From positions 640,001 to 704,000 of the forward strand of contig OZ252251.1 in NCBI GenBank assembly GCA_965249725.1: a stretch of DNA of 64,000 nt, written 5' to 3'. Shown piece after piece: positions 42,960 to 61,467 of the stretch (within the stretch, counting starts at the first letter, position 1; each line of letters begins with the position of its first letter). Below the pieces are notes generated by a model, which saw only the letters and a program-made list of their open reading frames with translations, made no database searches and was not told the origin of the DNA. The position numbers and the translations under genes are program-made. The DNA is from Longimicrobiales bacterium (GTDB lineage: Bacteria; Gemmatimonadota; Gemmatimonadetes; Longimicrobiales; Gaopeijiaceae).

Positions 42960-44306
42960 ATGTCGTACCCCCGAACCACCATCCTGGGCGCCGTTGCGGC
43001 CTTGGTTGCCTTCGCCGTCTTCGCCCCTACGCCCTCTGAGGCGCAGTGGAATGCGCTGGAGCGCGGAAGCGACAACATCGAAGTCCTCGGACATCTGCCC
43101 CTCGGCCCCGCGCTCAACGTCGCCGATATGGACGTCGAGCAGGAGCTGTCCCGTCCCTACGCCTACGTGGCTCGCATGGTCTACGCAGGCCAGGGGGTCA
43201 TGGGCATGGACGTCATCAGCATTGAAGATCCGTCGCAACCCGAGCTGCTCTACGAGTGGCGCATCGAGGAGCAGGACCTGCACCTCGGTCGAGGCGGCAT
43301 GGACGTCAAGCACTTCAAGTGGAATGATCGCTACTACGTGATCCAGTCCACCCAATTCGGGCAGGGTGGCCCGGATTCGGACATGGGCGGCGTCGTTCTC
43401 GACGTGACCGGTCTACCCGATGCATCGACGGTTCGTGAGGTCGCGCGAATCAGAGAGCCTCTCATGCCGGGTGGCTTCCACAACATCTTCGTCTACAAGC
43501 ACTCCGACGGGCGGGTGTTGTTGTTCGCAACAGTTTCAGGCGCCTTCGCGCAGGTTTACGACCTGGGCAAGCTGGTTGAAGGCGCCTCGTCCGAAGAGGC
43601 ACGCGCCGGCCGGGTCCCCAACCCCAGCTCGGACGAAGGAGGTGGACGGGGATATCACGACTTCTACGTCGGCTACCATCCAGACACCGATCAGGATCGG
43701 TTCTACGGCGGTGGCGGTGGTGGGTACTACATCTACAACGTCAGCGACCTTGAGGAGCCCGAGCTGGTGGTCACGCTCACGGGCGTCAGCGGTGTCGGTG
43801 GCGGCCACACGTTCACGCCTGGCCCGAACGGTCGCTACGTGGTGGCGGAGACGGAGTACGAGTTCGCACCGCTCAGAATCTTCGACCTGGAGCCTGCCCT
43901 GGAAGGGGAGGCCACGAACATCCGCCGACCCATCTCGGGTTGGACGGCCGACTACAAAAACTTGACCCACAATCACGAGATCCGGTGGCCGTTGGTCTTC
44001 GTGTCCGGCTATCTGGATGGTCTCCAGGTGTTCAGCCTCCAGGATCCGTACAATCCGGTCACGGTGGGCTACTACGACACCTACATCGGTCCGCGGTCCA
44101 CCGAGACCACCCCCGTATTCAACGGCGCATTCGGAATCGACGTCCGGAATGCGGACGGGCTGATCACGATCAGCGACATGAGCACCGGATTCTGGACGTT
44201 CCGCATGGATGGCTTCCAGGGCTGGAACGGAGCGCAGTGGGGCGTGCCGGACATCTCCAGCGCTCAGAAGTGGGATGAGCCCCTGAGGCGTCCCATCAGC
44301 CAGTAG
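42960..44306 (+). CDS. Secreted LVIVD-like His beta-propeller, array copy 1
   Basis: Signal peptide; GFHN, YHD, GHT, HNHE motifs; paralogous to nine neighbours. Confidence 0.85.
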   Translation: MSYPRTTILGAVAALVAFAVFAPTPSEAQWNALERGSDNIEVLGHLPLGPALNVADMDVEQELSRPYAYVARMVYAGQGVMGMDVISIEDPSQPELLYEWRIEEQDLHLGRGGMDVKHFKWNDRYYVIQSTQFGQGGPDSDMGGVVLDVTGLPDASTVREVARIREPLMPGGFHNIFVYKHSDGRVLLFATVSGAFAQVYDLGKLVEGASSEEARAGRVPNPSSDEGGGRGYHDFYVGYHPDTDQDRFYGGGGGGYYIYNVSDLEEPELVVTLTGVSGVGGGHTFTPGPNGRYVVAETEYEFAPLRIFDLEPALEGEATNIRRPISGWTADYKNLTHNHEIRWPLVFVSGYLDGLQVFSLQDPYNPVTVGYYDTYIGPRSTETTPVFNGAFGIDVRNADGLITISDMSTGFWTFRMDGFQGWNGAQWGVPDISSAQKWDEPLRRPISQ

Positions 44307-44357
44307 CGATAGCTGCAGGCCGCGTAACACCGCCGACCCTCTCCACGGAGTTGATGC

Positions 44358-45791
44358 ATGTCTGTTTCAGGTGGCCTCTCAGGTGTTCGCGTAGTCGGAC
44401 GCGGCCTTCGCCTTGCCGTTCACCTTGCGTGTACGCTGGCATGTACGCTGGCATGTGTGATGACAGTGCTCGGGACGCCCCGTGCCTCCGCGCAGGAGTG
44501 GACCGCCCTCGATCGGGGCAGTGAAAACATCGACGTGCTGGGCCACCTGCCGTTGGGCGGCCCGCTCAACGTGGGCGACATGGACGTGGAGCCGGAGGTT
44601 TCCCGCCCCTTCGCGTACGTCGGCCGCATGCGCTACGGCACGCCGGGACCCACGGGCATGGACATCATCAGCATCGAGGACCCGGACCGGCCCACGCTCC
44701 TCTACGAGTGGCGCATCGAGGATCAGGAGCTGCACACGGGACTCGGAGGCATGGACGTGAAGACGTTCAAGCTCGACGGGCGCTACTACGTGGTGCAGTC
44801 CCTTCAGTACGGCCAGGGCGGACCGGACTTCGACCTCGGTGCCGTGGTCTTCGACGTCACGGGTCTCCCCGACGCGTCGACCGTTCGTGAGGTGGCGCGG
44901 ATCCGTGAGCCGCTCCTACCTGGGGGCTTCCACAACATCTTCATCTACAAGCACTCCGACGGTCGGGCGCTCCTGTTCACGACGGTGAACGGCCCATCGG
45001 CGCACATCTACGACCTTGCGCGTGTCGTCGCGGGCGCCAGCGCGGAGGATGCACTAGTGGGTCGTGTGCCGATCCCGGATGCCGGCGGCGAGACCAGTCC
45101 CATCGGCGGCTATCACGACTTTTACGTCGGGTATCATCCCGATACGGACGAGGATCGCTTCTACGGTGGAGGTGCAGGCGGATACTTCATCTACGACGTG
45201 ACTGATCCGGCAGAGCCGGAGCTTCGGATCACGCTTACCGGCATTCGGGGCGTGCCGTTTGGGCACACCTTCACGCCCAGCCCGGACGGTCGCTACGTGA
45301 TCGCCGAGACAGAGTACGAGTTCGCTCCGCTGCGCATCTTCGATCTGCAGCCCGCCCTCGATGGCCAGACGACCAACATCAACCGCCCGATCGCAGGGTG
45401 GACGTCGGATTACCGGTATGTGGCCCACAACCACGAGGTTCGGTGGCCGTTGGTTTTTGTGTCCGGATACCTGGACGGCCTGCAGGTCTTCAACCTGCAG
45501 GACCCGACCGACCCGGTGACGGTGGGCTACTACGACACGTATATCGGGCCGCGAGCCACACTGAATCCAGACGGGGTCATGGGCGACTATGCCACCAGCC
45601 TTTTCAATGGGGCCTTCGGAGTGGATGTGCGGAACGAAGACGGCCTGATCCTGATCAGCGACTTCTCGACCGGCTTCTGGACGCTCCGCATGGACGGCTT
45701 CCAGGGCTGGAACGGAGAGCAGTGGGGCGTGCCGGATATCTCGAGCGAACAGAAATGGGACGAGCCGGTACGGCGGCCCATAAGCGAATAG
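44358..45791 (+). CDS. Secreted LVIVD-like His beta-propeller, array copy 2
   Basis: Same scaffold; extended loop PRATLNPDGVMGDYATSLF; start uncertain. Confidence 0.85.
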   Translation: MSVSGGLSGVRVVGRGLRLAVHLACTLACTLACVMTVLGTPRASAQEWTALDRGSENIDVLGHLPLGGPLNVGDMDVEPEVSRPFAYVGRMRYGTPGPTGMDIISIEDPDRPTLLYEWRIEDQELHTGLGGMDVKTFKLDGRYYVVQSLQYGQGGPDFDLGAVVFDVTGLPDASTVREVARIREPLLPGGFHNIFIYKHSDGRALLFTTVNGPSAHIYDLARVVAGASAEDALVGRVPIPDAGGETSPIGGYHDFYVGYHPDTDEDRFYGGGAGGYFIYDVTDPAEPELRITLTGIRGVPFGHTFTPSPDGRYVIAETEYEFAPLRIFDLQPALDGQTTNINRPIAGWTSDYRYVAHNHEVRWPLVFVSGYLDGLQVFNLQDPTDPVTVGYYDTYIGPRATLNPDGVMGDYATSLFNGAFGVDVRNEDGLILISDFSTGFWTLRMDGFQGWNGEQWGVPDISSEQKWDEPVRRPISE

Positions 45792-45819
45792 AATCTCAAC
45801 CCTAGCGGGAGCAGTAGAT

Positions 45820-47163
45820 ATGTCATCGTTCCGGTCCTGTGTAGTCGGCCTGGCCACGCTCGCCCTGATGGCGATCGTCGTGCCGGGGGCTTCGGCCCAG
45901 TGGACGGCCCTCAAGCGTGGTAGCGACAACATCGAGGTCGTCGCGCACCTCCCCCTCGGAGGTCGCGTCAGCGCAGCGGACACGGACATCGAGCAGGAGC
46001 TTGACAGGCCCTACGCCTACGTGGGGCGGATCTCTAACGGCGGCGGCGGCAAGGGCGTTGACGTCATTGATCTGTCAGACCCAGCGCACCCGGAGGTTCT
46101 CTACGAGTGGCGGATCGAAGATCCGGAGCTGCACCTCGGGTTGGGTGGCATGGACGTGAAGTACTTCAAGGTGGACGGCCGCTACTACGTGGTGCAGTCA
46201 CTCCAGTTCGGCCAGGGTGGTCCCGACTCCGACCTGGCTGCGGTGGTACTCGACGTGACTGATCTGCCCGATCCGTCCACGGTGCGTGAGGTGGCACGGA
46301 TGAGGGAGCCGCTTCTGCCGGGCGGCTTCCACAACATCTTCGTCTACAAGCACTCCGACGGGCGGGTGTTGTTGTTCTCCACGGTCAGCGGGCCCTTCGC
46401 CAACGTGTACGACCTGGGCATGATCGTGCAGGGCGCGGACATGGAGAGCGCGCTGGCGGGCCGGGTGCCCGTGCCGCAGGCCGCCCAAGGTGGCCAAGCG
46501 GGTGGGGGTTACCACGACTTCTACGTGGGCTATCACCCCGACACGGACGAGGATCGCTTCTACGGGGGCGGCACCGGAGGGTATTACGTCTACGACGTCA
46601 CCGACACGGAGGACCCCCAGCTCCGGATCAGCCTCACCGGTGCCCGAGGTGTAGCGCGGGGACACACCTTCACGCCCAGCCCTGACGGGCGATATGTGGT
46701 AGCCGAGACGGAGTATCAGTTCGCGCCGCTCCGTATCTTCGATCTGAAGCCCGCGCTCGACGGTGAGGTGACCAATATCAACCGGCCCATTGCGGGGTGG
46801 ACGGCCGACTTCAACAACCTCTCCCACAATCACGAAGTTCGCTGGCCGTTCGTGATCGTGTCGAGCTACCTGGACGGGATCCAGATCTTCAACCTGCAGG
46901 ACCCCACCAATCCGGTCACGGTGGGCTACTACGACACCTACATCGGGCCGCGCTTCACGGAGGATCTCAACCCGATCCTCAATGGCACGTTCGGCGTGGG
47001 CGTGCGCAACGCGGACGGGCTCATCATCGGGAGCGACTCCAGCACCGGATTCTGGGTCCTACGCATGGACGGCTTCCAGGGGTGGAACGGCGAGCAGTGG
47101 GGCATGCCGGACATCTCGAGCGCGCAGAAATGGGATGAGCCGGTCCGGAGGCCGATCAGCTGA
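45820..47163 (+). CDS. Secreted LVIVD-like His beta-propeller, array copy 3
   Basis: Same scaffold and His motifs. Confidence 0.85.
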   Translation: MSSFRSCVVGLATLALMAIVVPGASAQWTALKRGSDNIEVVAHLPLGGRVSAADTDIEQELDRPYAYVGRISNGGGGKGVDVIDLSDPAHPEVLYEWRIEDPELHLGLGGMDVKYFKVDGRYYVVQSLQFGQGGPDSDLAAVVLDVTDLPDPSTVREVARMREPLLPGGFHNIFVYKHSDGRVLLFSTVSGPFANVYDLGMIVQGADMESALAGRVPVPQAAQGGQAGGGYHDFYVGYHPDTDEDRFYGGGTGGYYVYDVTDTEDPQLRISLTGARGVARGHTFTPSPDGRYVVAETEYQFAPLRIFDLKPALDGEVTNINRPIAGWTADFNNLSHNHEVRWPFVIVSSYLDGIQIFNLQDPTNPVTVGYYDTYIGPRFTEDLNPILNGTFGVGVRNADGLIIGSDSSTGFWVLRMDGFQGWNGEQWGMPDISSAQKWDEPVRRPIS

Positions 47164-47180
47164 CTAACGGAGGATTACCG

Positions 47181-48518
47181 ATGTTGTTCAGAACACGCGC
47201 AGTCGCCGTATTCGCGGCGGCCGCCGCTGTCCTCATGGTCGCGGTCGGGTCCGCGTCGGCTCAGTGGACGCCACTGAAGCGAGGAAGCGACAACATCGAC
47301 GTGCTGGGGCATCTGCCGCTCGGAGGGCTGCACAGCGCCACCGACACCGACATTGAGCAGGAGCTCTCGAGACCCTACGCGTATGTCGGACGGAGCGTCA
47401 TCGGGCGGGGCGAGGGCCGGGGTGTCGATATCATCGACCTCTCCGACCCGGAGCGGCCGGGGCTGCTCTACTCGTGGCGGATAGAGGACGACGACGTCCA
47501 CATCGGGAGCGGCGGCATGGACGTGAAGCACTTCAAGGTCGATGGCCGCTACTACGTGGTGCAGTCACTCCAGTTCAGTCAGGGCGGGCCCGACGCGGAT
47601 ATGGGCGCGGTGGTGCTCGACGTGACAGGGCTGCCGGATCCATCGACCGTTCGCGAGGTAGCCCGGATCCGTGAACCCCTCCTGCCGGGCGGGTTCCACA
47701 ACATCTTCGTCTACCAGCACTCGGATGGGAGAGTGCTCCTTTTCACCACGGTGCGCGGGCCCAGCGCACACGTGTACGACCTTCGGAAGGTGGTGAACGG
47801 AGCCAGCGCGGAAGAGGCCCTTGCCGGGCGCGTGCCGGTTCCCGTGACCGGAGACACGCCGGGTAGTTATCACGACTTCTACGTGGGCTACCATCCCGAC
47901 ACGGATCAGGATCGCTTCTACGGCGGGGGCACGGGCGGCTACTACGTCTATAACGTCACCGACCCCGCTGACCCCGAGCTCGTCATAACGCTCACGGGGG
48001 TCCGAGGCGTTTCGTACGGGCACACGTTCACTCCCAGCCCTGACGGCCGCTACGCGGTGGCCGAGACGGAGTACCAGTTCGCCCCCCTCCGAATCTTCGA
48101 CCTGCAGCCGGCCCTGGACGGAGAGGCCGCCAATATCAACCGCCCGATCGCGGGCTGGACGGCCGACTACCGGAACCTGGTGCACAACCACGAGGTGCGC
48201 TGGCCGCTGGTGTTCGTATCCGGATACTTGGATGGCCTTCAGATCTTCAATCTGCAGGACCCCACGAATCCGGTGACCGTGGGCTACTACGACACCTATA
48301 TCGGGCCGCCGAGCCCGGTGCTGAACCCCGTATTCGGTGGGACCTTCGGCGTGGACGTGAGGAACGCGGACGGGCTCATCATCGTCAACGACTCGGGCAC
48401 GGGCTTCTGGACCTTCCGGATGGAAGGCTTCCAGGGATGGAACGGCGAGCAGTGGGGCATGCCGGACATCTCCAGTGCGCAGAAGTGGGACGAGCCGGTG
48501 CGGAGGCCCATAAGCTAA
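47181..48518 (+). CDS. Secreted LVIVD-like His beta-propeller, array copy 4
   Basis: Same scaffold and His motifs; GGAGG RBS. Confidence 0.85.
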   Translation: MLFRTRAVAVFAAAAAVLMVAVGSASAQWTPLKRGSDNIDVLGHLPLGGLHSATDTDIEQELSRPYAYVGRSVIGRGEGRGVDIIDLSDPERPGLLYSWRIEDDDVHIGSGGMDVKHFKVDGRYYVVQSLQFSQGGPDADMGAVVLDVTGLPDPSTVREVARIREPLLPGGFHNIFVYQHSDGRVLLFTTVRGPSAHVYDLRKVVNGASAEEALAGRVPVPVTGDTPGSYHDFYVGYHPDTDQDRFYGGGTGGYYVYNVTDPADPELVITLTGVRGVSYGHTFTPSPDGRYAVAETEYQFAPLRIFDLQPALDGEAANINRPIAGWTADYRNLVHNHEVRWPLVFVSGYLDGLQIFNLQDPTNPVTVGYYDTYIGPPSPVLNPVFGGTFGVDVRNADGLIIVNDSGTGFWTFRMEGFQGWNGEQWGMPDISSAQKWDEPVRRPIS

Positions 48519-48616
48519 CGTGGCGCGGTTTTTTTTCGTCCCCTAGCTTGTCGAGCACGCAGAATCGATCCGTGCCGGACCGCACGGCGCTCAATCCATA
48601 GCAGGAGCACTCTCCA

Positions 48617-49957
48617 ATGCCACGCCCACGAACCGCCGTTCTCTGTGCCGTCGTTCTGGCGCTTCTCACACTACTGCCGGTCTCCGCGGTCGCCCAGGCG
48701 ACTGCACTGAATCGCGGAAGCGACAACATCGATGTTCTCGGGCACTTGCCGCTGGGCCCCGCCCTGAGCGTGTTGGACATGGATGTGGAGCAGGAGTTGT
48801 CCAGGCCGTATGCCTACGTGGCACGTGGTCGACTCGGGCCGGCTGGGCCGCGCGGGATGGACATCATCAGCATCGAGGATCCTGACCGCCCCGAGCTCCT
48901 GCACGAGTGGCGGATCGAGGATCAGGACCTGCATGTCGGGCCGGGTGGCATGGACGTGAAGTACTTCAAGGTGAACGGCCGTTACTACGTCGTGCAGTCG
49001 GTCCAGTTCGGGCAGGGAGGGCCGAACGCCGATGTCGGTGCCGTGGTTTTGGACGTGACGGGTCTCCCGGATCCGTCCACCGTGCGTGAGGTGGCCCGTA
49101 TCAGTGAGCCCCTCTCGCCTGGTGGCTTCCACAACATCTTCGTCTACAAGCACTCCGATGGTCGTGTGCTGCTTTTCGCGACGATCAACGGCCCGTATGC
49201 CCACATGTACGATCTGGGGATGGTCGTGTCAGGGGCCACTTCCGAGCAGGCGTTGGCCGGCAAGGTGCCCATCGCGAACGACGGCAATACGCCGGTCATC
49301 GTGGGCTACCACGACTTCTACGTCGGGTATCATCCGGACACGGATGAGGACCGCTTCTACGGTGGTGGTGGCGGTGGCTACTACGTCTACGACGTGAGCG
49401 ACCCGTCGTCGCCCGAGCTCCGCATCACGTTGACGGGAATCAGCGGAGTACCGTTCGGTCACACCTTCACCCCGAGCCCCGATGGACGGTATGTCGTTGC
49501 CGAGACGGAGTACGGCTTCGCGCCGCTCAGGTTCTTCGATCTGAAGCCGGCGCTGGACGGCGAGACCATGAACATTCGCCGGCCCATCTCGGGCTGGACA
49601 CCGAACTACAAGAACGTGGTCCACAACCACGAGGTGCGCTGGCCTTGGCTGTTCGTCTCGGGCTATCACGAGGGGCTACAGGTCGTGAACCTGCAGGACC
49701 CCACGGATCCGCAGACCGTGGGCTACTACGACACCTACATCGGACCCCACACCGAAGTGATCAACCCGATCTTCAATGGTGCGTTCGGGATCGACGTGCG
49801 GAACGAGGACGGCCTGATCCTGATCAGTGACATGAGCACCGGGTTCTGGACCTTCCGCATGGATGGATTCCAGGGTTGGAACGGTGAGCAGTGGGGCCAG
49901 CCGGATATCTCCAGTGTGCAGAAATGGGATGAGCCGGTGCGCAGGCCCATCAGCTAG
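48617..49957 (+). CDS. Secreted LVIVD-like His beta-propeller, array copy 5
   Basis: Same scaffold and His motifs; AGGAG RBS. Confidence 0.85.
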   Translation: MPRPRTAVLCAVVLALLTLLPVSAVAQATALNRGSDNIDVLGHLPLGPALSVLDMDVEQELSRPYAYVARGRLGPAGPRGMDIISIEDPDRPELLHEWRIEDQDLHVGPGGMDVKYFKVNGRYYVVQSVQFGQGGPNADVGAVVLDVTGLPDPSTVREVARISEPLSPGGFHNIFVYKHSDGRVLLFATINGPYAHMYDLGMVVSGATSEQALAGKVPIANDGNTPVIVGYHDFYVGYHPDTDEDRFYGGGGGGYYVYDVSDPSSPELRITLTGISGVPFGHTFTPSPDGRYVVAETEYGFAPLRFFDLKPALDGETMNIRRPISGWTPNYKNVVHNHEVRWPWLFVSGYHEGLQVVNLQDPTDPQTVGYYDTYIGPHTEVINPIFNGAFGIDVRNEDGLILISDMSTGFWTFRMDGFQGWNGEQWGQPDISSVQKWDEPVRRPIS

Positions 49958-49994: not shown

Positions 49995-51329
49995 ATGTCG
50001 AACCGTCATCCACGCTATGCGGCCGCGGTTTCGACCGTATTCGCACTTCTCGTGCTCGTTGCAGCTCCCGTGTCCGGGCAGTGGACCGCCCTCAACCGGG
50101 GGAGCGACAACATGGAGGTGTTGGGACACCTCCCCCTGGGCCCCTTCCTGAACGTGTCGGACATGGACCTGGAGCAAGAGCTGTCTCGTCCCTACGCGTA
50201 TGTCTCCCGCATGGTATGGGGAGAGGGCGGTGCCAAGGGCATGGACATCGTCAGCCTCGAGGACCCTTCGCATCCCGAACTCATCTACGAGTGGCGGATC
50301 GAAGAACAGGATCTACACGTAGGGACCGGCGGCATGGACGTGAAGTACTTCAAGATTGCCGATCGTTACTACGTGGTGCAGTCGTTTCAATTCGGTCAGG
50401 GCGGTCCCGATTCGGACATGGGTGCGGTGGTCTTGGACGTGACGGGTCTCCCGGATCCATCAGCGGTTCGGGAGGTGGCCCGCATCCGAGAGCCGCTCCT
50501 GCCGGGTGGCTTCCACAACATCTTCGTCTATAAGCACTCCGACGGCCGGGTGCTGCTGTTCACGACCGTTTCCGGGCCCTACTCCCACGTCTACGATCTT
50601 GAGCGTGTGGTCGCCGGCGACATGGAAAATGCGCTGGTGGGTCGTGTGCCCGGTCCCGACCGCGAAGGTGGCGGTTCGGCCTATCACGACATCTACGTGG
50701 GCTACCATCCGGACACCGACCAGGACCGGTTCTACGGGGGCGGGACAGGTGGTTACTACATCTATGACGTCACGGACGTCGAGGCCCCCTCACTCGAAAT
50801 CAGTTTGACGGGGATCAGCGGGGTGGGCCGTGGTCACACGTTCACGCCGAGTCCCGACGGGCGCTACGCTGTGGCCGAGGTCGAGTACCAGTTCGCTCCC
50901 CTTCGGATCTTCGATCTACAGCCGGCCTTGGACGGTGAGACCACGAACATCCGTCGCCCCATCGCGGGCTGGACGGCGGACTACCAGAACCTGGTGCACA
51001 ATCACGAGGTTCGGTGGCCTTATGTGTTCGCTTCGTCGTACCTGGACGGACTCACGGTCTTCAACCTCCAGGATCCGTCCAATCCGGTGACGGTCGGCTA
51101 TTACGACACATATCTCGGAAAGCCGGGGCCCCGAAGCACCATTGTGGGTGGGGCGTTCGGCGTGGACATCCGCAATGAGGACGGCCTGATCGTCGTGAGC
51201 GACATGAACACGGGCCTGTGGACCTTCCGCATGGACGGTTTCCAGGGGTGGAGCGGCGACCAGTGGGGCGTGCCGGACATCTCGAGCGCCCAGAAGTGGG
51301 ACGAACCTCTGCGCAGACCGATCAGCTAA
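49995..51329 (+). CDS. Secreted LVIVD-like His beta-propeller, array copy 6
   Basis: Same scaffold; AAGGAGG RBS before ATG 49995. Confidence 0.85.
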   Translation: MSNRHPRYAAAVSTVFALLVLVAAPVSGQWTALNRGSDNMEVLGHLPLGPFLNVSDMDLEQELSRPYAYVSRMVWGEGGAKGMDIVSLEDPSHPELIYEWRIEEQDLHVGTGGMDVKYFKIADRYYVVQSFQFGQGGPDSDMGAVVLDVTGLPDPSAVREVARIREPLLPGGFHNIFVYKHSDGRVLLFTTVSGPYSHVYDLERVVAGDMENALVGRVPGPDREGGGSAYHDIYVGYHPDTDQDRFYGGGTGGYYIYDVTDVEAPSLEISLTGISGVGRGHTFTPSPDGRYAVAEVEYQFAPLRIFDLQPALDGETTNIRRPIAGWTADYQNLVHNHEVRWPYVFASSYLDGLTVFNLQDPSNPVTVGYYDTYLGKPGPRSTIVGGAFGVDIRNEDGLIVVSDMNTGLWTFRMDGFQGWSGDQWGVPDISSAQKWDEPLRRPIS

Positions 51330-51401
51330 CCATCACCCCATAGACATGCCCTCAACCCACTAGACATGCACGAATTCAACCTTCAGCGGGAGAAGCACTC
51401 A

Positions 51402-52954: not shown

Positions 52955-54409
52955 TTAGAGCCCGTAGATCAGGCGAGCGTTCTCGAGCCCGATGAGCCGA
53001 GCGAGGTCCGGGGGGAGGGCCTGCAGCAAGGCCTCGAACGGCTCCATGTGTGCGTCGATGAGGTCGGGGTTGGCGTAGAAGGTGTCGGAGCCCAGAACGA
53101 AGCGGTCGGGGAAGGCCGTGAAGAGTGCAAGCCACTCCGGTCGCAGCGCACCTCCTTCGTCGAGCGGCGCGTGCTCGGGAAAGAGCGGCACGATGGCGTC
53201 ACTATATATGAGGACCTGGAGGAAGAGGTTGGGGTGAGCCTCGAGCAGGGTGCCAAGCAGCTCCACGGTCATGTCGCCGGTGTTGTCCCAGCCGACATGG
53301 GCCCACACGATGCGCGTCTCCTGATTGTGCGAAAGGAGTCGCTCCAGTGCGTCGACGTTGGCACGTAGGGAGGCCGGGTTCAGGGCGCTGCGCTGCAAGA
53401 AGACTGGGGGTGTAGGCTTCTCGGTCACCACCGCCTCCATGTGAAGGTCGATGGGAACGCCGTACTGCGCGGCCAGGTCCGCCGCGAGAAGGAAGGCGGC
53501 ATGATCGGGCGGCATCTCGAGGAATGGGTGCTCGGGCCGAAAGGAGAGGTGTAGCGCAGTGAGCTCACCTAAGACGACCGAGCCGCTGGTGGAGAGCTGC
53601 GCCGCCGCGGCTACCAAAGCGTCTGAAAGTTCGGACGTGAGGCCGTCTACCTGGCTCTGGTGAAGAAGCGGGTTGAGCGAGAAGCCGCCAGCGGCGAAGG
53701 CGAAGCGGTCAGACCGGCTGGTGATGGCCGCTGATAGCGCGCTTTCGAAGGCGTTGGCTGCTACGGGTGAAGGAGGTGGCATCATCACCGCCTGCACGAC
53801 GTGGTGCACATCTTGGCGAGCGACGGCTCGGTCCAGGCAGGCAGGATCGAAGCAGCTGACCATCTCACCCGGCCCAAAAGTGGGGTGCGTGTGCGTGTCG
53901 ATCCATGTCGCCGCGGGGGCGGGGGCTACCATCGTGGCTACTGCCGTTCCGCTTCGTCCCTCGCTCGAGGCCGTGAGGGTGCTCACGCCAGGTCCGACGG
54001 CTGTGACGAGCCCGCTGGCACTAACGGTCGCGGCACCTTGGCTCGAGCTGGACCAGGTGACCGTTCGACCGGAAAGCACATTCCCGCCTGCGTCCGTCAC
54101 GGTGGCCGTGAATTGCGCCGTTTGACCGATTTCGAGCGTAATCGAACTCGGAGAGACCGCTACCGAGGCGACAGGCACGGGGAGGGTAGGCCCCGGCGCA
54201 GTAGGCTGCTCGGAGCTGCCTCCACCCTCACCACCACCGCAAGCTGTTAGTGCCAGTAAGAGGACCAACCAAGTTAGGAACTTCCGATTCTGGCTTTGCT
54301 TAAGATCCTCAGCCAGATGCACCGTGGCCATGCCACCCTCGCCCAACTCACGCTCGATGGCGTAGCGGCCCTCCAAAGCCGAGTTCAGGCGGTCAACTGG
54401 ATCGGACAT
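52955..54409 (-). CDS. Ig-like (Big_2) plus amidohydrolase lipoprotein with an N-terminal Ser/Thr kinase remnant
   Basis: RYAIERELGEGGMATVHLAEDLK kinase subdomain I; lipobox LTAC; VASVAVSPS...VTWSSS Big_2; IDTHTH, DLHME, WAHVG, LGSD. Confidence 0.78.
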   Translation of the reverse strand: MSDPVDRLNSALEGRYAIERELGEGGMATVHLAEDLKQSQNRKFLTWLVLLLALTACGGGEGGGSSEQPTAPGPTLPVPVASVAVSPSSITLEIGQTAQFTATVTDAGGNVLSGRTVTWSSSSQGAATVSASGLVTAVGPGVSTLTASSEGRSGTAVATMVAPAPAATWIDTHTHPTFGPGEMVSCFDPACLDRAVARQDVHHVVQAVMMPPPSPVAANAFESALSAAITSRSDRFAFAAGGFSLNPLLHQSQVDGLTSELSDALVAAAAQLSTSGSVVLGELTALHLSFRPEHPFLEMPPDHAAFLLAADLAAQYGVPIDLHMEAVVTEKPTPPVFLQRSALNPASLRANVDALERLLSHNQETRIVWAHVGWDNTGDMTVELLGTLLEAHPNLFLQVLIYSDAIVPLFPEHAPLDEGGALRPEWLALFTAFPDRFVLGSDTFYANPDLIDAHMEPFEALLQALPPDLARLIGLENARLIYGL

Positions 54410-54494
54410 GGGCACTCCCCGGACTAGACCGTTGTGAATGTCCGGGTTCGGGGAGCGCAAGCAGAACGACGTTGAAGGCCGACTCAGCAAGGTC

Positions 54495-54805: not shown

Positions 54806-56155
54806 ATGCTCTACACTCGGCCAACCCTCATAGCGACGGCGTTCGCCCTCGCGGCGTTGATCGCCACGGCCGTGGCTCCCGTTTCGGCCCAGTGGACTCC
54901 GTTGAGCCGCGGGAGTGACAACATCGAGGTGCTCGGGCACCTCCCTGTGGGTCCCGCTCTCAGCGTCTCGGACATGGATGTGGAGCAGGAGCTGTCCCGT
55001 CCCTACGCTTACATGAGCCGCATGGCCTATGGCGGCGAAGGGCCCATGGGCCTCGACATCATCAGCATCGAGGACCCGGGGAATCCGCAGATCCTCTACG
55101 AATGGCGGATCGCCGACCGCGACCTCCACTCGGGTAACGGGGGGATGGACGTGAAGTACTTCAAGGTGAACGGCCGCTATTACGTGGTGCAGTCGACACA
55201 GTTCGGCCAGGGTGGTCCGGACTCGGACATGGGCGCCGTAGTGCTCGACGTCACGGGTCTGCCCGATCCGTCCACCGTGCGTGAGGTCGCCAGGCTCCGT
55301 GAGCCGCTGCTGCCCGGCGGCTTCCACAACATCTTCGTCTACAAGCACTCGGATGGCCGAGTGCTGCTGTTCGCCACCGTCAGTGGGCCGTTCGCCAACG
55401 TGTATGACCTGGGCAAGGTGGTTCAGGGGGCATCCGCCGAGGAGGCGCTCGCCGGACAGGTTCCCAACCCGCAATCTCAGGCCGCCGGCGGCGGACGAGG
55501 GTACCACGACTTCTACGTCGCCTACCATCCGGATACCGATGAGGACCGCTTCTACGGAGGTGGCGGTGGCGGGTACTACATCATCGACGTCTCCGATCTG
55601 TCGGATCCACAGGTCCGCATCACGCTGACGGGCGTCCGCGGAGTGGGCGGGGGCCACACGTTCACCCCGAGCTCCGACGGCCGCTACGTCGTCGCCGAGA
55701 CAGAGTATCAGTTCGCGCCCCTCCGGTTGTTCGACCTCAAGCCTGCTCTCGATGGAGAGGTCACCAACATCAACCGCCCGATCTCGGGCTGGACCGCGGA
55801 CTGGAACAACCTGGTCCACAATCACGAGGTCCGTTGGCCCTACGTGTTCGTGACCGGTTATCTGGACGGACTCCAGGTCTTCAACATGCAGGACCCCGCG
55901 AATCCGCAGACGGTTGCCTATTACGACACGTACATCGGAGTTCGCGATCCCGAGCGTTGCCAGGAGTGCAACGGTGCGTTCGGGGTCGACGTTCGCAACG
56001 CCGACGGACTCATCGTGATCAGCGACATGAGCACTGGCCTGTGGACGTTTCGCATGGACGGCTTCCAAGGTTGGAACGGAGAGCAGTGGGGGATGCCCGA
56101 CATCTCCAGCGCTCAGAAGTGGGATGAGTCGGTACGGCGGCCGATTAGTGATTAG
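54806..56155 (+). CDS. Secreted LVIVD-like His beta-propeller, array copy 8
   Basis: Same scaffold; GGGAGG RBS; CQEC loop. Confidence 0.85.
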   Translation: MLYTRPTLIATAFALAALIATAVAPVSAQWTPLSRGSDNIEVLGHLPVGPALSVSDMDVEQELSRPYAYMSRMAYGGEGPMGLDIISIEDPGNPQILYEWRIADRDLHSGNGGMDVKYFKVNGRYYVVQSTQFGQGGPDSDMGAVVLDVTGLPDPSTVREVARLREPLLPGGFHNIFVYKHSDGRVLLFATVSGPFANVYDLGKVVQGASAEEALAGQVPNPQSQAAGGGRGYHDFYVAYHPDTDEDRFYGGGGGGYYIIDVSDLSDPQVRITLTGVRGVGGGHTFTPSSDGRYVVAETEYQFAPLRLFDLKPALDGEVTNINRPISGWTADWNNLVHNHEVRWPYVFVTGYLDGLQVFNMQDPANPQTVAYYDTYIGVRDPERCQECNGAFGVDVRNADGLIVISDMSTGLWTFRMDGFQGWNGEQWGMPDISSAQKWDESVRRPISD

Positions 56156-56231
56156 CCGAAGCCGCTCCTCTATCGAGCACTCGTCCATAAAGATATATCA
56201 CAGAAGCACTTACAGCAGGAGCACACGGTTC

Positions 56232-57581
56232 ATGTCACACCATCGGTCAAGTACGGTAGCGACGGCTTTTGCCGTCGTAGCTCTCGTCGCACTCGCCGCG
56301 GCGCCGGTCTCTGCGCAGTGGACCGCCATGAAGCGCGGTAGCGACAACATCGAGGTCATCGGCCACCTGCCGCTGGGGCCGGCCTTGAGTGTTTCCGATA
56401 TGGATGTGGAGCAGGAGTTGTCCCGTCCGTATGCCTATGTGTCGCGAATGCTCTACGGTGTCACCGGCCCCAAGGGCATGGACATCATCAGCATCGAAGA
56501 CCCGGCCAACCCCGAGATCATCTACGAGTGGCGGATCGAAGAGCAGGATCTTCATCTGGGCCGAGGCGGCATGGATGCCAAGCACTTCAAGATCGGCAAC
56601 CGCTACTACGTGGTTCAGTCCACGCAGTTCGGCCAGGGCGGCCCCAATTCAGACATGGGCGCCGTGGTCCTTGATGTGACCGGACTGCCGGACCCGGCCA
56701 CGGTCCGAGAGGTCAACCGAATCCGGGAGCCTCTGCGTCCCGGTGGCTTCCACAACATCTTCATCTACAAGCACTCTGATGGCCGAGTACTTCTGTTCGC
56801 GACGGCGGCCGGGCGGGTCGCCTTGATCTACGACCTCGCTCTGGTGGTGGATGGTGCGGACGCCGAAGCGGCCCTCGTCGGGGAGGTTCCGATCCCCAAT
56901 CAACCCGAGGGCCAGGACAACAGGAGTTATCACGACTTCTACGTCGGCTACCATCCGGACACCGATCAGGACCGGTTCTACGGGGGTGCCGGGGGCGGCT
57001 ACTACATCTATGACGTGACGGATCCGGCGAATCCCAACCTCGAAATCACCCTTACGGGGATTCGCGGGGTGGAGTGGGGTCACACATTCACGCCCAGCCC
57101 GGACGGTCGCTACGTGGTGGCCGAGGCCGAGTACCAGTTCGCACCGCTCCGTATCTTCGACCTGAAGCCGGCTCTGGACGGCCAGACGACCAACATCAAC
57201 CGCCCGATCTCAGGCTGGACGGCGGACTACGACAACCTGGTGCACAACCACGAGATCCGGTGGCCCTGGATGTTCGTGACGGGCTATGTGGACGGCCTTC
57301 AGGTCGTAAACCTCCAGGATCCGACGAACCCCGTGACAGTCGGCTACTACGACACGTACCTCGGTGTCAAAGACCCGACCCGGTGCCAGGAGTGTAACGG
57401 GTCCTTCGGAATCGACGTCCGCAACGAAGACGGACTCATCGTCATGAGCGACATGAGCACCGGCCTCTGGACTTTCCGCATGGACGGCTTCCAGGGTTGG
57501 AGCGGTGAGCAGTGGGGTATGCCGGACCTGTCGAGTGCCCAGAAGTGGGACGAGCCGGTGCGGAGGCCGATCAGTCAGTAG
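56232..57581 (+). CDS. Secreted LVIVD-like His beta-propeller, array copy 9
   Basis: Same scaffold; CQEC loop. Confidence 0.85.
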   Translation: MSHHRSSTVATAFAVVALVALAAAPVSAQWTAMKRGSDNIEVIGHLPLGPALSVSDMDVEQELSRPYAYVSRMLYGVTGPKGMDIISIEDPANPEIIYEWRIEEQDLHLGRGGMDAKHFKIGNRYYVVQSTQFGQGGPNSDMGAVVLDVTGLPDPATVREVNRIREPLRPGGFHNIFIYKHSDGRVLLFATAAGRVALIYDLALVVDGADAEAALVGEVPIPNQPEGQDNRSYHDFYVGYHPDTDQDRFYGGAGGGYYIYDVTDPANPNLEITLTGIRGVEWGHTFTPSPDGRYVVAEAEYQFAPLRIFDLKPALDGQTTNINRPISGWTADYDNLVHNHEIRWPWMFVTGYVDGLQVVNLQDPTNPVTVGYYDTYLGVKDPTRCQECNGSFGIDVRNEDGLIVMSDMSTGLWTFRMDGFQGWSGEQWGMPDLSSAQKWDEPVRRPISQ

Positions 57582-57714
57582 GAAACTCAACAAATCATGC
57601 ACGCCGGCTGTCTATATATACTGGCGAGGTTCCTGACGCCTTGGTAGATTACGTGGACGTCGGCGACAGCGCTGATCGTACGTGGCAAATCATCTAAAGT
57701 TGGAGAGATCGCCC

Positions 57715-59064
57715 ATGCAACGCTCCCGGACCGGCATCCTCGCGGCTGCCATCCTTACAGTTCTCGCTACCAGCATGCCCGCTGATGCGTCTGCGCAAGA
57801 GATGAACGCGCTCACGCGTGGCAGTGACAATATCGAGGTGCTAGGGCATCTCCCCCTCGGACCCGCCCTAAACACGTCGGACATGGACGTTGAGCAGGAG
57901 ATGTCCCGTCCTTATGCCTACGTCGGTCGGATGGCATACGGTGGCGTTGGCGTGAAGGGCATGGACATCATCAGCATCGAGGATCCGTCGAATCCGGAGA
58001 TTCTGTACGAGTGGCGCATCGAGGACCAGGATCTCCACCTGGGCCTGGGCGGGATGGACGTGAAGCACTTCAAGTGGAACGACCGCTACTACGTGGTGCA
58101 GTCGCTCCAGTTTGGTCAGGGTGGACCGGACGCGGACCTCGGCGCGGTAGTGCTCGACGTCACAGGTCTTCCCGATCCGTCCACGGTGCGTGAGGTCGCG
58201 CGAATCCATGAGCCGCTGATGCCGGGTGGTTTCCACAACATCTTTATCTATAAGCACTCGAGTGGTCGGGTGCTGCTCTTCACGACCATCGGAGGACCCT
58301 TTGCTCAGATCTATGACCTGGGCACGCTCGTCGAGGGTGGCTCCACTGAGGATGCGCGGGCCGGCCGGGTGCCGAACCCGCAGTCCCAAGAGACCGGCGG
58401 TAACGGCGGGTACCACGACTTCTACGTCGGATACCATCCGGACACCGATGAAGACCGCTTCTACGGCGGCGGGCGCGGTGGTTACTACATCATCGACGTT
58501 ACGGATCTTTCGGATCCGCAGGTTCGCATCACCCTGACGGGCGTCAGCGGAGTGGGCGGTGGTCACACGTTCACGCCGAGCCCCGACGGCCGGTACGTGG
58601 TTGCCGAGACCGAGTACGAGTTCGCTCCGCTCCGGTTCTTCGACCTGCAGCCGGCGCTGGACGGCGAAACGACCAACATTCGTCGGCCCATCTCCGGCTG
58701 GACATCGAACTACAAGAACCTCGTGCACAACCACGAGGTCCGTTGGCCCTGGCTGTTCGTCTCGGGCTACCTGGACGGACTCCAAGTCGTGAACCTCCAG
58801 GATCCGACCAATCCGCAGACCGTGGGGTATTACGACACTTACATCGGTGCGCGCCGCGCGGATCGTACGCCCGTGTTCAACGGCGCGTTCGGGATAGACG
58901 TGAGAAACGCGGATGGGCTAATATTGATCAGTGATATGAGCACGGGGTTCTGGACCTTCCGAATGGACGGCTTCCAGGGCTGGAACGGCGAGCAGTGGGG
59001 AGTCCCCGACATCTCCAGCGCTCAGAAGTGGGATGAGCCCGTGCGTCGTCCAATAAGCGAGTAG
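57715..59064 (+). CDS. Secreted LVIVD-like His beta-propeller, array copy 10
   Basis: Same scaffold and His motifs; GGAGAG RBS. Confidence 0.85.
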   Translation: MQRSRTGILAAAILTVLATSMPADASAQEMNALTRGSDNIEVLGHLPLGPALNTSDMDVEQEMSRPYAYVGRMAYGGVGVKGMDIISIEDPSNPEILYEWRIEDQDLHLGLGGMDVKHFKWNDRYYVVQSLQFGQGGPDADLGAVVLDVTGLPDPSTVREVARIHEPLMPGGFHNIFIYKHSSGRVLLFTTIGGPFAQIYDLGTLVEGGSTEDARAGRVPNPQSQETGGNGGYHDFYVGYHPDTDEDRFYGGGRGGYYIIDVTDLSDPQVRITLTGVSGVGGGHTFTPSPDGRYVVAETEYEFAPLRFFDLQPALDGETTNIRRPISGWTSNYKNLVHNHEVRWPWLFVSGYLDGLQVVNLQDPTNPQTVGYYDTYIGARRADRTPVFNGAFGIDVRNADGLILISDMSTGFWTFRMDGFQGWNGEQWGVPDISSAQKWDEPVRRPISE

Positions 59065-59067
59065 ATC

Positions 59068-59613
59068 ATGAACATCTTTATTCCGATTGCGGTGGCGGTG
59101 CTGGGTGTAGGGCCCAACGGGGCTCAGGCGGCCCCGGCCATGTGTTTCGCCGCCGACAACCAGCCTCCCGTCTTCTATCGGGTGGAGCTCATCACCACGA
59201 AGCGAGTCCCGGGGTCGGGAATGGCGACCGGCGCGGGCGAGATCACGTTCACGCCCTCTCCGTTCGCGGTGAACCTCACGCCTGAGGGTGATTACCTGCG
59301 TGACGTGAACATCACCGTGAACGGTCTCAAGCCGGCTGCGAGCGGCAACTACGTCGCTTGGGTGACGACCCCCGCATTGGACCGCACCACGCGGCTCGGC
59401 GTGCTTGATGCCGACGGAACCGCCAGCGGACAGATCGCCTTCAACAAGTTCCTCCTCGTGATCTCTCTCGAGGAAGACGACGGCTCGTCCTCGGAGCGTT
59501 GGAAGGGACCCATCGCGCTGAGGGGCATGTCCCGGAGTGGGGCAATGCACACCTCTGCGGGGCACGGACCCTTCGTGGTCGAGAACTGCACGGGGTACGG
59601 CTTCAACGGGTAA
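59068..59613 (+). CDS. Secreted hypothetical beta-rich protein with His/Met/Cys tail
   Basis: Signal peptide, two Cys, MHTSAGH; starts 3 nt after copy 10. Confidence 0.7.
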   Translation: MNIFIPIAVAVLGVGPNGAQAAPAMCFAADNQPPVFYRVELITTKRVPGSGMATGAGEITFTPSPFAVNLTPEGDYLRDVNITVNGLKPAASGNYVAWVTTPALDRTTRLGVLDADGTASGQIAFNKFLLVISLEEDDGSSSERWKGPIALRGMSRSGAMHTSAGHGPFVVENCTGYGFNG

Positions 59614-59701
59614 GGAGTCAGCCCGTTCACAACGACATCCCCGTCGGTCTCGGTCATCCGTGGCCGACGGGGATGTTTCGCTTTCAACCGAAGTGATACG
59701 C

Positions 59702-61453
59702 ATGCGCCAGACCAATAGCCGACGGTCCGCTGGGCCGCGGAGATCTTACAGAATCCTAGGGGCCACGGTACTCGGCCTCTCCGTTCTCACCGGCCAGTTA
59801 CAGGCCCAGGAGATGGACCACAGCCAGCACGAGATGGAGATGGGTGACAGCCTGATGTGGACCATGCCTCCTCATCCCGTGTGGATGAACCCGGCCATGA
59901 TGGCGCCGTTCATGGGGATTCTCCCCGACGTCGAGCCGTTCATGCCTGGCTGGGAACTGGACATCATGACGTTGCCGGTCGCGAAGGCGCCCGAGGTGGT
60001 CCAGCTCGCATCAGGGGACACGCTCCGACTCGATGGCGGGATCCTACACGGAATGGTGGGCAGCCGGATGCTCAAGGTGTACGGGTTCAACGGCCAGTTC
60101 CCCGGACCGACGCTCAAGGTGCCCCAGAACGCGTCAATCACGGTGGAATTCACCAACAACATCGACTTCGCGACCACCCTGCGTTGGCACGGGGTGAGGG
60201 TGGAGAACGAGTACGACGGCGTGCCGGGCCAAACGCAGAGGCCGGTCCGCGTCGGGGCGACCTATACCGCGGAAGTCACGTTCCCGGATGCGGGCGCATT
60301 CTGGTATCATCCGCACCAGCGCGGGTACATCGCGCAGGATCTGGGTCTCTACGGTGCGATCCTCGTGGACTCGCCCGATCCCGACTACTACGCGCCCGCC
60401 AACTCCGAAGAGGTGCTAATCCTCGATGACGCCCTCATGACCGCGACGAACTGGGCTCCGTTCGGCCTGGAGGCCCCGACGAATGCTCTCATGGGGCGTT
60501 TCGGCAACGTGCTCCTGGTCAATGGACGTCCCGGCTTCAGGAAGGACGTCAAGAAGGGCGACGTCGTGCGGCTGCACCTGACCGACGCCTCGAACACCAA
60601 GAACTACAATCTCAGGGTCGAGGGTGACGTCCCGATGAAACTCGTTGCCGGAGACTTGAGCCGGTATGAGCACGAGCAGATGGTGTCCAACGTGATCATC
60701 GCTCCCGGGCAGCGGTACACCGTGGACACCAGGTTCGCCGAGTCGGGCGAGTACGCGCTCACCAACCGGATCACGGCCGTCGATCACTGGATGGGAGAGT
60801 ACTTCTATCAGGTGGATACGCTCGGTGTGTTCGTCGTCTCCGATGAGGAGACCGATCAGGACTACGGCGCGCAGTTCGCAGAGCTACGCACCAACGATGA
60901 CGTCGTGGCCGAGTTCGCGGCCGTGCGCGCCCAGGCGGGTCGCCAGGTCGATGAGGAACTCGTGCTGTCGCTCAAGGTCGGCGAGTTGCCGATCCCCGTC
61001 ATCATGATGATGGAGATGGATACTCTCTTCTATCCTCCGGTCGAGTTCAACGATGCCATGCCTATGATGAACTGGCTCTCCACGGGCATCGACGTCATGT
61101 GGCTCATGCACGAGCCCTCGCCCGGAGTGTCGCCTCGGGACCTCGGGCCGGCGGTCGGCTGGCGGTTCAAGCAGGGCGACATCGTCAAGATTAGGGTGTT
61201 CAATTCCCACGACTCGTGGCACCCCATGAGCCATCCGTTGCACCTGCACGGTCAGCGGTTCGCAGTGATCGAGCAGGACGGTGTGCAGACGGACAACCTG
61301 GTGTGGAGGGACACCATCCTGATTCCGGTGGGCACCACCATGGATCTTATGGTGGAGATGTCGAATCCCGGCACGTGGATGTTCAACTGTCAGATTCCGG
61401 AGCACGTGGGATCCGGCATGTCGATGAATTTCACGGTGGATCCGGTCAACTAG
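59702..61453 (+). CDS. Three-domain multicopper oxidase homologue with degenerate trinuclear site
   Basis: FNGQFPGPTL, RWHG, WYHPH, HPLHLHG, WRDT, NPGTWMFNCQIPEHVGSGM; Met/His-rich N-terminus. Confidence 0.9.
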   Translation: MRQTNSRRSAGPRRSYRILGATVLGLSVLTGQLQAQEMDHSQHEMEMGDSLMWTMPPHPVWMNPAMMAPFMGILPDVEPFMPGWELDIMTLPVAKAPEVVQLASGDTLRLDGGILHGMVGSRMLKVYGFNGQFPGPTLKVPQNASITVEFTNNIDFATTLRWHGVRVENEYDGVPGQTQRPVRVGATYTAEVTFPDAGAFWYHPHQRGYIAQDLGLYGAILVDSPDPDYYAPANSEEVLILDDALMTATNWAPFGLEAPTNALMGRFGNVLLVNGRPGFRKDVKKGDVVRLHLTDASNTKNYNLRVEGDVPMKLVAGDLSRYEHEQMVSNVIIAPGQRYTVDTRFAESGEYALTNRITAVDHWMGEYFYQVDTLGVFVVSDEETDQDYGAQFAELRTNDDVVAEFAAVRAQAGRQVDEELVLSLKVGELPIPVIMMMEMDTLFYPPVEFNDAMPMMNWLSTGIDVMWLMHEPSPGVSPRDLGPAVGWRFKQGDIVKIRVFNSHDSWHPMSHPLHLHGQRFAVIEQDGVQTDNLVWRDTILIPVGTTMDLMVEMSNPGTWMFNCQIPEHVGSGMSMNFTVDPVN

Positions 61454-61467
61454 GAGCGATCCGCTTC

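Follow-up and report, generated by a model that had tools for sequence, protein, structure and literature searches.

What would a bacterium do with ten neighboring genes for exported beta-propellers of one family, followed by a small secreted protein and a multicopper oxidase (MCO)? The question is raised by a locus of a Longimicrobiales bacterium (Gemmatimonadota; Gaopeijiaceae), found in a stretch of 64,000 nucleotides (nt) read on the forward strand of assembly GCA_965249725.1 (OZ252251.1:640,001-704,000; hereafter the window), where open reading frame (ORF) calls and translations place ten intact plus-strand ORFs of one propeller family in the region 42960-61453. An initial annotation of the locus saw in it a periplasmic battery of metal-dependent, possibly copper-dependent, enzymes or binding proteins of differing specificity that share one downstream copper-loading or electron-accepting module.

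Our answer is a tentative one, to which we assign a probability of roughly 45%: the propellers would be periplasmic metalloenzymes, probably of copper, that differ in specificity and depend on a copper-handling pair encoded at the end of the array. Our literature search (LVIVD, choice-of-anchor B and MCO/beta-propeller/Gemmatimonadota terms) returned nothing on the propeller family or on the module. New here are the ten-copy array, a genome with 45 copies, the one-to-one orthology of array members, an asymmetric co-occurrence of propeller and partner (41/41 genomes), fusions of the small domain to the MCO, a partner fold resembling superoxide dismutase (SOD) and CCS, and a conserved MCO variant with a dismantled trinuclear cluster. 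The family is large and has no Pfam model, and neither it nor its obligate-looking partnership with an MCO has a name in the literature searched. If its members are metal enzymes, abundant marine, sponge-associated and soil bacteria, most of them uncultured, would possess a greatly enlarged set of periplasmic catalysts that has gone unrecognized; the module would add an example of dedicated periplasmic metallation or electron transfer, and the natural MCO variant would be a ready probe of the partner's role.

Ten Exported Propellers of an Unnamed Family

The ten genes belong, as paralogs, to a family of exported, seven-bladed LVIVD-type beta-propellers that has no name. All on the plus strand, they occupy 42960..44306 (copy 1, ORF opening at 42933), 44358..45791 (copy 2), 45820..47163 (copy 3), 47181..48518 (copy 4, which was modeled, served as query of the searches and gives the residue numbering used below), 48617..49957 (copy 5, placed by ORF and alignment), 49995..51329 (copy 6, ORF opening at 49863), 51366..52739 (copy 7), 54806..56155 (copy 8, ORF opening at 54524), 56232..57581 (copy 9, ORF opening at 56124) and 57682..59064 (copy 10). 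Because several ORFs open upstream of the likely start codons, the true propeller lengths are approximately 445-477 amino acids (aa). Copy 10 adjoins the gene of a 181-aa small secreted protein (59068..59613, plus strand), which starts 3 nt after it, and an MCO homologue with three MCO Pfam domains (likely start 59702, end 61453, plus strand) follows 88 nt after the small gene. This layout agrees with the initial annotation, as does the intactness of the co-oriented paralogs, with all ten frames open. The motifs GGMDxK, GFHN, YHD, GHT, ExEY and HNHE, which had been listed as common to all copies, are invariant alignment columns in 10/10. The signal peptide ascribed to each copy also has a counterpart, in that every copy looks secreted: each N-terminus, judged by eye, has a hydrophobic stretch ending in A-x-A/Q-W, and residues 2-25 of copy 4 are modeled as an N-terminal helix. 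Identity to copy 1 ranges over 70-79%, column identity in the alignment of ten averages 76%, and the mature regions share 70-83% identity.

The AlphaFold2 model of copy 4, built from a 43-row alignment, has a predicted local distance difference test score (pLDDT) of 90.8 and a predicted template modeling score (pTM) of 0.88, and its 28 strands form seven four-stranded blades. Among Pfam models, LVIVD (PF08309) matched two of the ten copies at 17.4 and 19.2 bits, under its gathering score of 20.2; the other eight had no LVIVD match at E 0.01 and no Pfam match at all. The choice-of-anchor B model TIGR04312 gave 38.2, 42.2 and 47.2 bits for copies 1, 4 and 10, the three of ten that were tested, against a cut-off of 100, and 428.9 bits for the gene that converges on the array from the minus strand (61468-63912). 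Aligned by hhalign with the choice-of-anchor B domain of that neighbor, the propeller family scored 96.6% (E 6.1e-10, 339 columns), with FHN paired to AHN and YHD to SHD. By this profile comparison the propellers are homologous to the choice-of-anchor B domain, at a distance; the earlier assignment to the choice-of-anchor B/LVIVD group is thus kept as a remote relationship, with both models under their cut-offs. The family differs from that group in being a stand-alone protein of approximately 420 aa when mature, with a conserved Trp-rich C-terminus of its own and a linkage to an MCO.

An Old Array With Each Copy Retained

The ages of the copies were read from a quick FastTree phylogeny of 126 rows, whose support values are local only and in which a few long-branch rows were flagged. 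The ten copies fall within a 24-row clade (support 99) together with tandem copies from two other Longimicrobiales assemblies that carry orthologous arrays, six copies from one (L021) and four from the other (L022). In this tree copies 1, 3, 6, 8, 9 and 10 pair one-to-one and in the same order with the six copies of the first assembly (L021_4620, L021_6001, L021_7518, L021_9056, L021_10471 and L021_11963), copy 3 and its partner sharing approximately 87-89% aa identity, and copies 1, 6, 9 and 10 also pair with the four of the second (L022_1439, L022_3088, L022_4466 and L022_6001). Copy 10 and its ortholog L022_6001 are each the last copy before the small gene. The ratio of nonsynonymous to synonymous substitution rates (dN/dS) between orthologs is 0.07-0.11 at dS 0.6-0.9 (0.07 for copy 1), and for the 45 pairs within the array its median is 0.14 (range 0.09-0.22) at dS of approximately 1.2, a value close to saturation.

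Sequence nearly identical to the array also occurs in 14 runs at at least half of the sampled words (18 matching rows, seven studies), and no RNA data set was among the 23 runs listed. Contigs from four runs in four studies cover all 30 bins of 42800-61600, and short-read contigs bridge the junctions between copies 6 and 7, between copy 7 and the gene that intervenes before copy 8, between that gene and copy 8, and from copy 10 through the small gene to the MCO. These contigs end within repeats, and none of the listed short-read pieces covers the whole stretch by itself, as an assembly artefact would have it, but an artefact or a set of decaying duplicates is at odds with ten open frames under the constraint given above, with collinear orthologous arrays in two other assemblies and with the four-study coverage and bridged junctions, and we give it practically no credit. 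From orthology, purifying selection and contig support it follows that the array is old: it consists of anciently duplicated genes, each retained under purifying selection, and is not a recent amplification, a decaying set or an artefact.

A Family of Thousands and Forty-Five Paralogs in One Genome

The array is not a self-contained set, as its first description might imply; its ten copies are real, but they belong to some 45 paralogs, the majority of them remote from any MCO. In the genome (4.16 Mb in three contigs), copy 4 had 51 matches, 45 of them strong (49-100% identity, E 6e-121 or better) and six weak, to true choice-of-anchor B proteins. There are further tandem sets, and 21 paralogs lie within 80-308 kb of contig 3.

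Beyond this genome, a word-indexed search found at least 2,620 proteins at E ≤0.001 among the 8,000 candidates scored, the best 120 of which are 68-100% identical to the query and include three or four encoded in the window; most of these 120 are unlabeled, and the names given are "hypothetical protein" bar one "LVIVD repeat-containing protein." An exhaustive search of cluster representatives returned 2,594 at E ≤0.001 and 143 at E ≤1e-30. The family keeps approximately 65-70% identity across phyla. Within the phylum, 41 of 151 sampled genomes have a propeller match at E ≤1e-30; most genomes of the window's own taxonomic family have one or two such matches, and two genomes (G043 and G127) have at least 11 scored matches each.

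Several features of the paralogs on contig 3 deserve mention. One of the 45, at 1914160-1915416, is interrupted by an in-frame TAA and may be the only family member here to have become a pseudogene. Paralogs at separate sites are in some cases almost identical (295374/95787 and 2441144/162696, with branch lengths of 0.03-0.05), which points to recent segmental duplication, and near the contig 3 cluster lie a Mutator-family transposase fragment (L100:4678-5325) and a reverse transcriptase (L103:4889-6127).

Linkage of Propeller, Small Protein and Multicopper Oxidase

The conserved company of the array is a pair of genes. In the window's genome each of the three MCO paralogs has a propeller gene directly upstream, and each of the four small-protein paralogs abuts one. 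Around the best propeller match in each of 20 relatives the small gene is present at 20/20 loci and the MCO at 18/20, so that all three genes occur together at 18, in either of two orders (propeller-small-MCO or small-MCO-propeller). A further 79 loci, drawn from a scan of species-representative genomes and representing the closest relatives of the query, hold the small gene in 70 cases and the MCO in 65, always with the small gene; several of the missing cases stem from loci truncated at the end of a contig. These 79 loci span Longimicrobiales and other Gemmatimonadota, Rhodothermales/Bacteroidota, Acidobacteriota and two metagenome-assembled genomes labeled Gammaproteobacteria, and between one and seven tandem propeller copies precede the pair, tandem amplification having occurred in several lineages. 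When the ORFs of all 99 loci were clustered, no other gene family was present at more than 17.

Moreover, the co-occurrence is asymmetric. The small domain was found in 65 of the 151 sampled genomes, including all 41 with a propeller, and in 39 of these 41 a comparison of coordinates places a co-oriented small gene no more than 6 kb from a listed propeller. Twenty-four further genomes have the small domain with no propeller match at E ≤1e-30, and in 22 of them it stands in an open frame of at least 695 aa (these counts include two unpublished genomes, G097 and G057). The association with the two downstream genes noticed in the window is, on these counts, borne out elsewhere.

At the two Gammaproteobacteria-labeled loci (L048 and L054) the propellers nest in a Longimicrobiales clade with branch lengths of 0.009-0.015 and are accompanied by the same module with a second small+MCO pair, which looks like mis-binning or a very recent transfer and not like an independent phylum. 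A second, divergent small+MCO pair, on the opposite strand and 2-4 kb upstream of the propeller, was also seen at L002, L004, L005, L006, L011, L041, L042, L046, L050 and L088, as at L048 and L054; its small protein is 35-42% identical to that of the window and has the tail H-x-x-H-x-K-F-E-R-E-x-C.

A Small Protein and a Variant Oxidase as Partners

The stand-alone small protein is best conserved over its last 30 residues, where an alignment of 40 rows shows the invariant tail R-G-M-S-R-S-G-x-M-H-T-x-A-G-H-G-P-F-x-x-E-x-C-x-x-Y-G-[YF]. Its model contains a beta-sandwich at residues 37-154 (pLDDT >90) and a tail at pLDDT 43-54 that is probably flexible. The sandwich is nearest in fold to Cu,Zn SODs and to domain II of CCS, a ranking also given by Foldseek at E 0.01 only. 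Across the 40 sequences just two His residues are invariant, H161 and H166 of the C-terminal tail, and the SOD copper/zinc ligand His are absent from the barrel in this alignment. Neither CopC nor any other Pfam family was found in the small protein apart from a weak RskA_C (PF10099), at 14.9 bits against a gathering score of 29.4 and matching eight of the 40 members (best E 0.0055). In the PDB profile search the sole match was to a YVTN surface-layer protein (E 5.3e-4) and was repeat-like, and the protein atlas returned only unnamed Gemmatimonadota clusters.

The fusions are informative about the company the small domain keeps. A 716-aa ORF on contig 3 of the same genome (137601-139751; L101:4601-6751) joins a small-like domain to a variant MCO; it starts at the base after a propeller stop codon and has a Met-rich linker in place of the tail. 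With its N-terminal domain as query we found 39 protein clusters of 612-1061 aa, its own included, all with the three MCO Pfam domains; with the small protein of the window as query no fused forms were found among longer proteins. Because the domain is fused to the MCO in 39 clusters, the small protein belongs with the MCO, and its earlier description as a free-standing His/Cys member of the array is set aside. Genes for DsbB (L101:2457-3023) and DsbA (L101:8265-8825) flank the triad that contains the 716-aa fusion.

The MCO of the window matches Cu-oxidase_3, Cu-oxidase and Cu-oxidase_2 at E 1.9e-31, 2.3e-19 and 2.5e-23, and its best scores against named families are 133.7 bits for CueO (NF008205, cut-off 525) and 111 bits for CopA (TIGR01480, cut-off 478.95). 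It contains 6.0% Met and has a Met/His-rich N-terminal region. We tested it for the four copper motifs HxHG, HxH, HxxHxH and HCHxxxHxxxxM, which together supply the eight cluster His and the type-1 His, Cys, His and Met. The second and third motifs (YHPH and HPLHLHG) and the type-1 ligands are kept, while the first reads RWHG, not HWHG, and the fourth reads NCQIPEHVGSGM, not HCH..H....M, with NCQ for HCH, so that three of the eight cluster His are replaced. Under the standard assignment of ligands, one type-2 His and both type-3 His that flank the type-1 Cys are gone and the four type-1 ligands remain. The same RWHG/NCQ variant occurs in both other MCO paralogs of the genome, in one sampled genome (G086), at the locus L017 and at the four closest loci (L022, L025, L027 and L032); 57 of the 62 module MCOs examined are canonical.

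No canonical three-domain oxidase was found among the Cu-oxidase_3 matches of the genome despite its 45 propellers; the only other Cu-oxidase_3 gene, at approximately 1714316-1715755 of contig 3, encodes a copper nitrite-reductase-like protein with a C-terminal CxxCH (cytochrome c) domain. This argues that the partner role here needs no O2 reduction at a trinuclear cluster, and judging from its motifs the variant MCO is most likely a copper-binding or one-electron partner, not an O2-reducing oxidase, in this lineage. The first description of the MCO as atypical therefore stands, whereas the ordinary, O2-reducing form of the electron-accepting role proposed with it is doubtful in this lineage because the His-Cys-His path to the trinuclear cluster has been lost.

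Similarities to known copper systems concern how such a pair may work. In PcoA/PcoC and CueO/CopA systems, as here, a Met-rich three-domain MCO is found with a small periplasmic beta-sandwich protein bearing Met/His ligands, and PcoC hands copper over to PcoA. Here, though, the MCO lies far below the family cut-offs and is without three cluster His, the small protein has no match to CopC, and the known Pco/Cop systems do not include a propeller as client. CCS combines a docking barrel with a flexible metal-ligand tail that bears a CXC motif. The small protein may share this architecture, a likeness of possible working and not of family membership: it has no sequence similarity to CCS, its tail reads M-H-T-x-A-G-H-G...C and not CXC, it would be periplasmic, and the fold match is modest. 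A complex prediction for copy 4 and the small protein, both entered as alignments, gave a score of 0.00 and a mark of 0.32 and speaks neither for nor against binding.

A Predicted Polar Ring Bordered by Variable Loops

Propeller enzymes hold metals at the starts of their innermost strands. In the model and alignment of our family, every fourth strand has conserved polar residues at its start or one to two residues ahead of it; this strand comes after the LVIVD strand and the outer strand and is therefore the innermost strand of each blade. They are D55 and E59 in blade 1, D114 in blade 2, H173 in blade 3, H231 and D232 in blade 4, H281 in blade 5, H335, H337 and E338 in blade 6 and D392 in blade 7. 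By the topology of the propeller these residues should encircle one mouth of the central tunnel. The His lining of the axis suggested at the outset is accordingly matched by invariant His and Asp at the inner-strand starts of successive blades, the ring itself being a reading of the model. Of the 44 paralogs of the genome that were aligned, 43-44 retain each ring residue (39 in the case of H337), and several ring His are replaced in relatives at 30-39% identity.

Variation among the ten copies is concentrated next to this ring. In the mature protein it peaks in the loop that precedes the inner strand of blade 4, with a mean entropy of 1.94 vs. 0.59 overall, followed by the loop that precedes the inner strand of blade 7 (1.67); the inner strand of blade 5, too, has one of the most variable stretches immediately ahead of it, and a loop of blade 1 and the two residues in front of GHT also rank among the most variable positions. 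An invariant polar ring with variable rim loops is the pattern expected of one chemistry applied to different substrates, and suggests it here; the differing specificity first proposed for the copies fits this concentration of variation. The rim loop of blade 7 carries an insertion in copy 2, and in copies 7, 8 and 9 (at approximately 52540, 55960 and 57390) a common CxxC (RCPEC/RCQEC) in the hypervariable loop before the inner strand, which might furnish the rim of the ring with two further metal ligands or with a redox disulfide.

The same ring bears on the view that the family consists of adhesins or of binding proteins, at the surface or in the periplasm, that catalyze nothing and in which the His residues have a structural use. 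LVIVD proteins are described as cell-surface proteins in a preprint (bioRxiv 10.1101/2022.05.06.490989), and the Foldseek matches of the copy 4 model are generic seven-bladed propellers, with WD40 scaffolds dominating the listed fold rows (Foldseek, VIA). A scaffold would have no need, however, of invariant inner-strand His/Asp in all seven blades, retained in 43-44 of 44 paralogs, nor would it call for a tight linkage to an MCO unit, and we find this view highly improbable.

Hydrolases, Copper Sinks or Copper Enzymes?

The closest enzyme in fold and sequence is Sb-PTE, a phosphotriesterase (haloalkylphosphorus hydrolase) of Sphingobium sp. TCM1 (PDB 5hrm/5ioj) that, like our family by its model, is a seven-bladed LVIVD-type propeller. 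It ranks second in Foldseek (5hrm, E 7.6e-11, 16% identity), as the only enzyme near the top, and is the only meaningful solved match in the PDB profile searches (E 0.0039 and 1.2e-4), the other rows of which are at chance level (E 0.78-1.2). Its metal centre is reportedly binuclear manganese, and we know of no MCO or small-protein partner of Sb-PTE. A paper title given in PMC11656708 places a binuclear metal centre inside the propeller.

The window's propellers might, by this analogy, be binuclear Mn/Zn/Fe hydrolases of phosphoesters, esters or amides that serve nutrient scavenging, the link to the MCO being secondary; the pair might then act on phenolic or metal products as an oxidase, or determine in which oxidation state the metal is loaded. 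Besides Sb-PTE being the only solved sequence relative, the ring with its five His and several Asp/Glu would suit such a centre, and many paralogs with variable rim loops would suit hydrolases of diverse substrates. The best argument for hydrolysis is the setting of the other paralogs, next to genes of uptake and hydrolysis: their neighbors include SusC/SusD pairs (twice), small outer-membrane barrels (three times), solute-binding proteins, an amino-acid permease, M24 peptidases, amidohydrolases, a creatininase, a gamma-glutamyl transpeptidase, a sulfatase and a DUF5916/CBM9 protein. Against hydrolysis, the Sb-PTE sequence match is confined to the LVIVD repeat segments, with no active-site residue aligned; there is no ready reason why a hydrolase should never occur without the small-domain/MCO unit (41/41 sampled); and the copper-chaperone-like features of that unit are left unexplained. 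We consider hydrolysis unlikely, if a credible rival.

Alternatively, the locus could be an operon of copper resistance or buffering, in which the propellers are copper sinks whose capacity is raised by tandem copies, the MCO has the role of PcoA/CueO and the small protein that of PcoC. The Met-rich, CueO/CopA-like MCO, the Met/His/Cys tail, the many conserved His of the propellers and the tandem amplification in several lineages would all be in keeping with this. The copies are not recent dosage duplicates, however, being 70-83% identical and under purifying selection, with six of them having one-to-one orthologs; their variation is focused on rim loops, most paralogs lie in nutrient-uptake contexts, and approximately 65-70% identity across phyla is unusual for a simple metal sink. 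A role as copper sinks is, in our estimation, improbable.

Under the interpretation that we prefer, that of periplasmic, probably copper-dependent metalloenzymes of differing specificity, the ring of His and acidic residues at the tunnel mouth would hold one or more metal ions, and the operon would end in a functional pair made of the SOD/CCS-like protein with its Met/His/Cys tail and the Met-rich, CueO/CopA-like MCO. The propellers, after their export, would depend on this pair, which may capture Cu(I), oxidize or hold it, and pass it to them by way of the tail, in a hand-over comparable to that of CCS serving SOD1 or PcoC serving PcoA. In an alternative version the pair would exchange electrons with the propellers through its type-1 copper. 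The paralogy of the copies, their linkage to the pair and the fusions within it are observations, while the metal site, the choice of copper, catalysis and the direction of dependence are what we infer from them.

Several points weigh against this interpretation. The ring mixes His with Asp/Glu, a combination more typical of Mn/Zn/Fe hydrolase centers than of redox copper sites. Since the 79 loci were drawn from the nearest relatives of the query, their linkage frequencies apply to that clade and are not those of the family at large, and counts from kin genomes are non-independent. Most of the 45 paralogs are far from any MCO, and the uptake and hydrolase genes beside them hint at nutrient acquisition.

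A more specific proposal sees in the propellers periplasmic multi-metal (copper) oxidoreductases of a new class, with a CuZ-like ring cluster, all served by one shared MCO and SOD-fold partner; each paralog would oxidize a different small substrate and the partner would be the common electron outlet or copper loader. In nitrous oxide reductase (CuZ) and thiocyanate dehydrogenase, inner-strand His of a seven-bladed propeller hold a multi-copper centre and the electron partner is of cupredoxin type. The idea of His-lined inner strands with a copper partner is common to both, but the ring of our family also contains Asp/Glu. Neither nitrous oxide reductase nor thiocyanate dehydrogenase was matched in the PDB profile search at E up to 10, and CuZ-type propellers are not among the 50 listed fold rows (Foldseek, VIA), where generic WD40 propellers dominate. 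We hold this proposal to be decidedly doubtful; if true, it would describe a modular system of many dehydrogenases with one blue-copper partner, widespread in marine and soil Gemmatimonadota, Rhodothermales and Acidobacteriota and expanded to approximately 45 genes in the present genome.

Other Genes In and Around the Array

The array is split between copies 7 and 8 by a minus-strand gene outside the family (52955..54490), of which the initial annotation made no mention; the arrays of the two other assemblies have no comparable gap between adjacent copies. Its product has a lipoprotein-like signal and the Pfam domains Big_2 and Amidohydro_2. An N-terminal Ser/Thr kinase fragment with a Gly-rich loop lies in frame upstream (NCBIfam Stk1, E 6e-6, residues 37-64), giving the order kinase piece, lipoprotein-like signal (LLLALTAC), Big_2 and Amidohydro_2; the kinase fragment looks like a remnant, and the true start of the gene is probably internal.

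Directly upstream of copy 1, on the plus strand, 41502-42836 encodes a DgaE/SelA-like pyridoxal phosphate enzyme (TIGR01437, 147 bits, under the cut-off) with an apparent twin-arginine signal (TRRSFL), an unusual location for its family. This gene did not recur beside the module at other loci, and the ORF clustering of the 99 loci lends no support to either it or the intervening amidohydrolase gene as a member of the module. The convergent neighbor downstream (61468..63912, minus strand; 814 aa), with FG-GAP repeats and a choice-of-anchor B domain, was rejected as a member because it adjoins the module at only 2/99 related loci and is given here as context. A scan of 42500-61800 gave no promoter-like and seven terminator-like sites, to be compared with 3.6 and 7.5 in shuffled sequence, and is therefore uninformative.

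Elsewhere in the window, the minus-strand ORF at 12200-13576 encodes another propeller of the LVIVD/choice-of-anchor B type, 63% identical to the C-terminal domain of the 814-aa neighbor, and one whole-genome match that overlaps the 3' end of this ORF reads through a TAG just past it.

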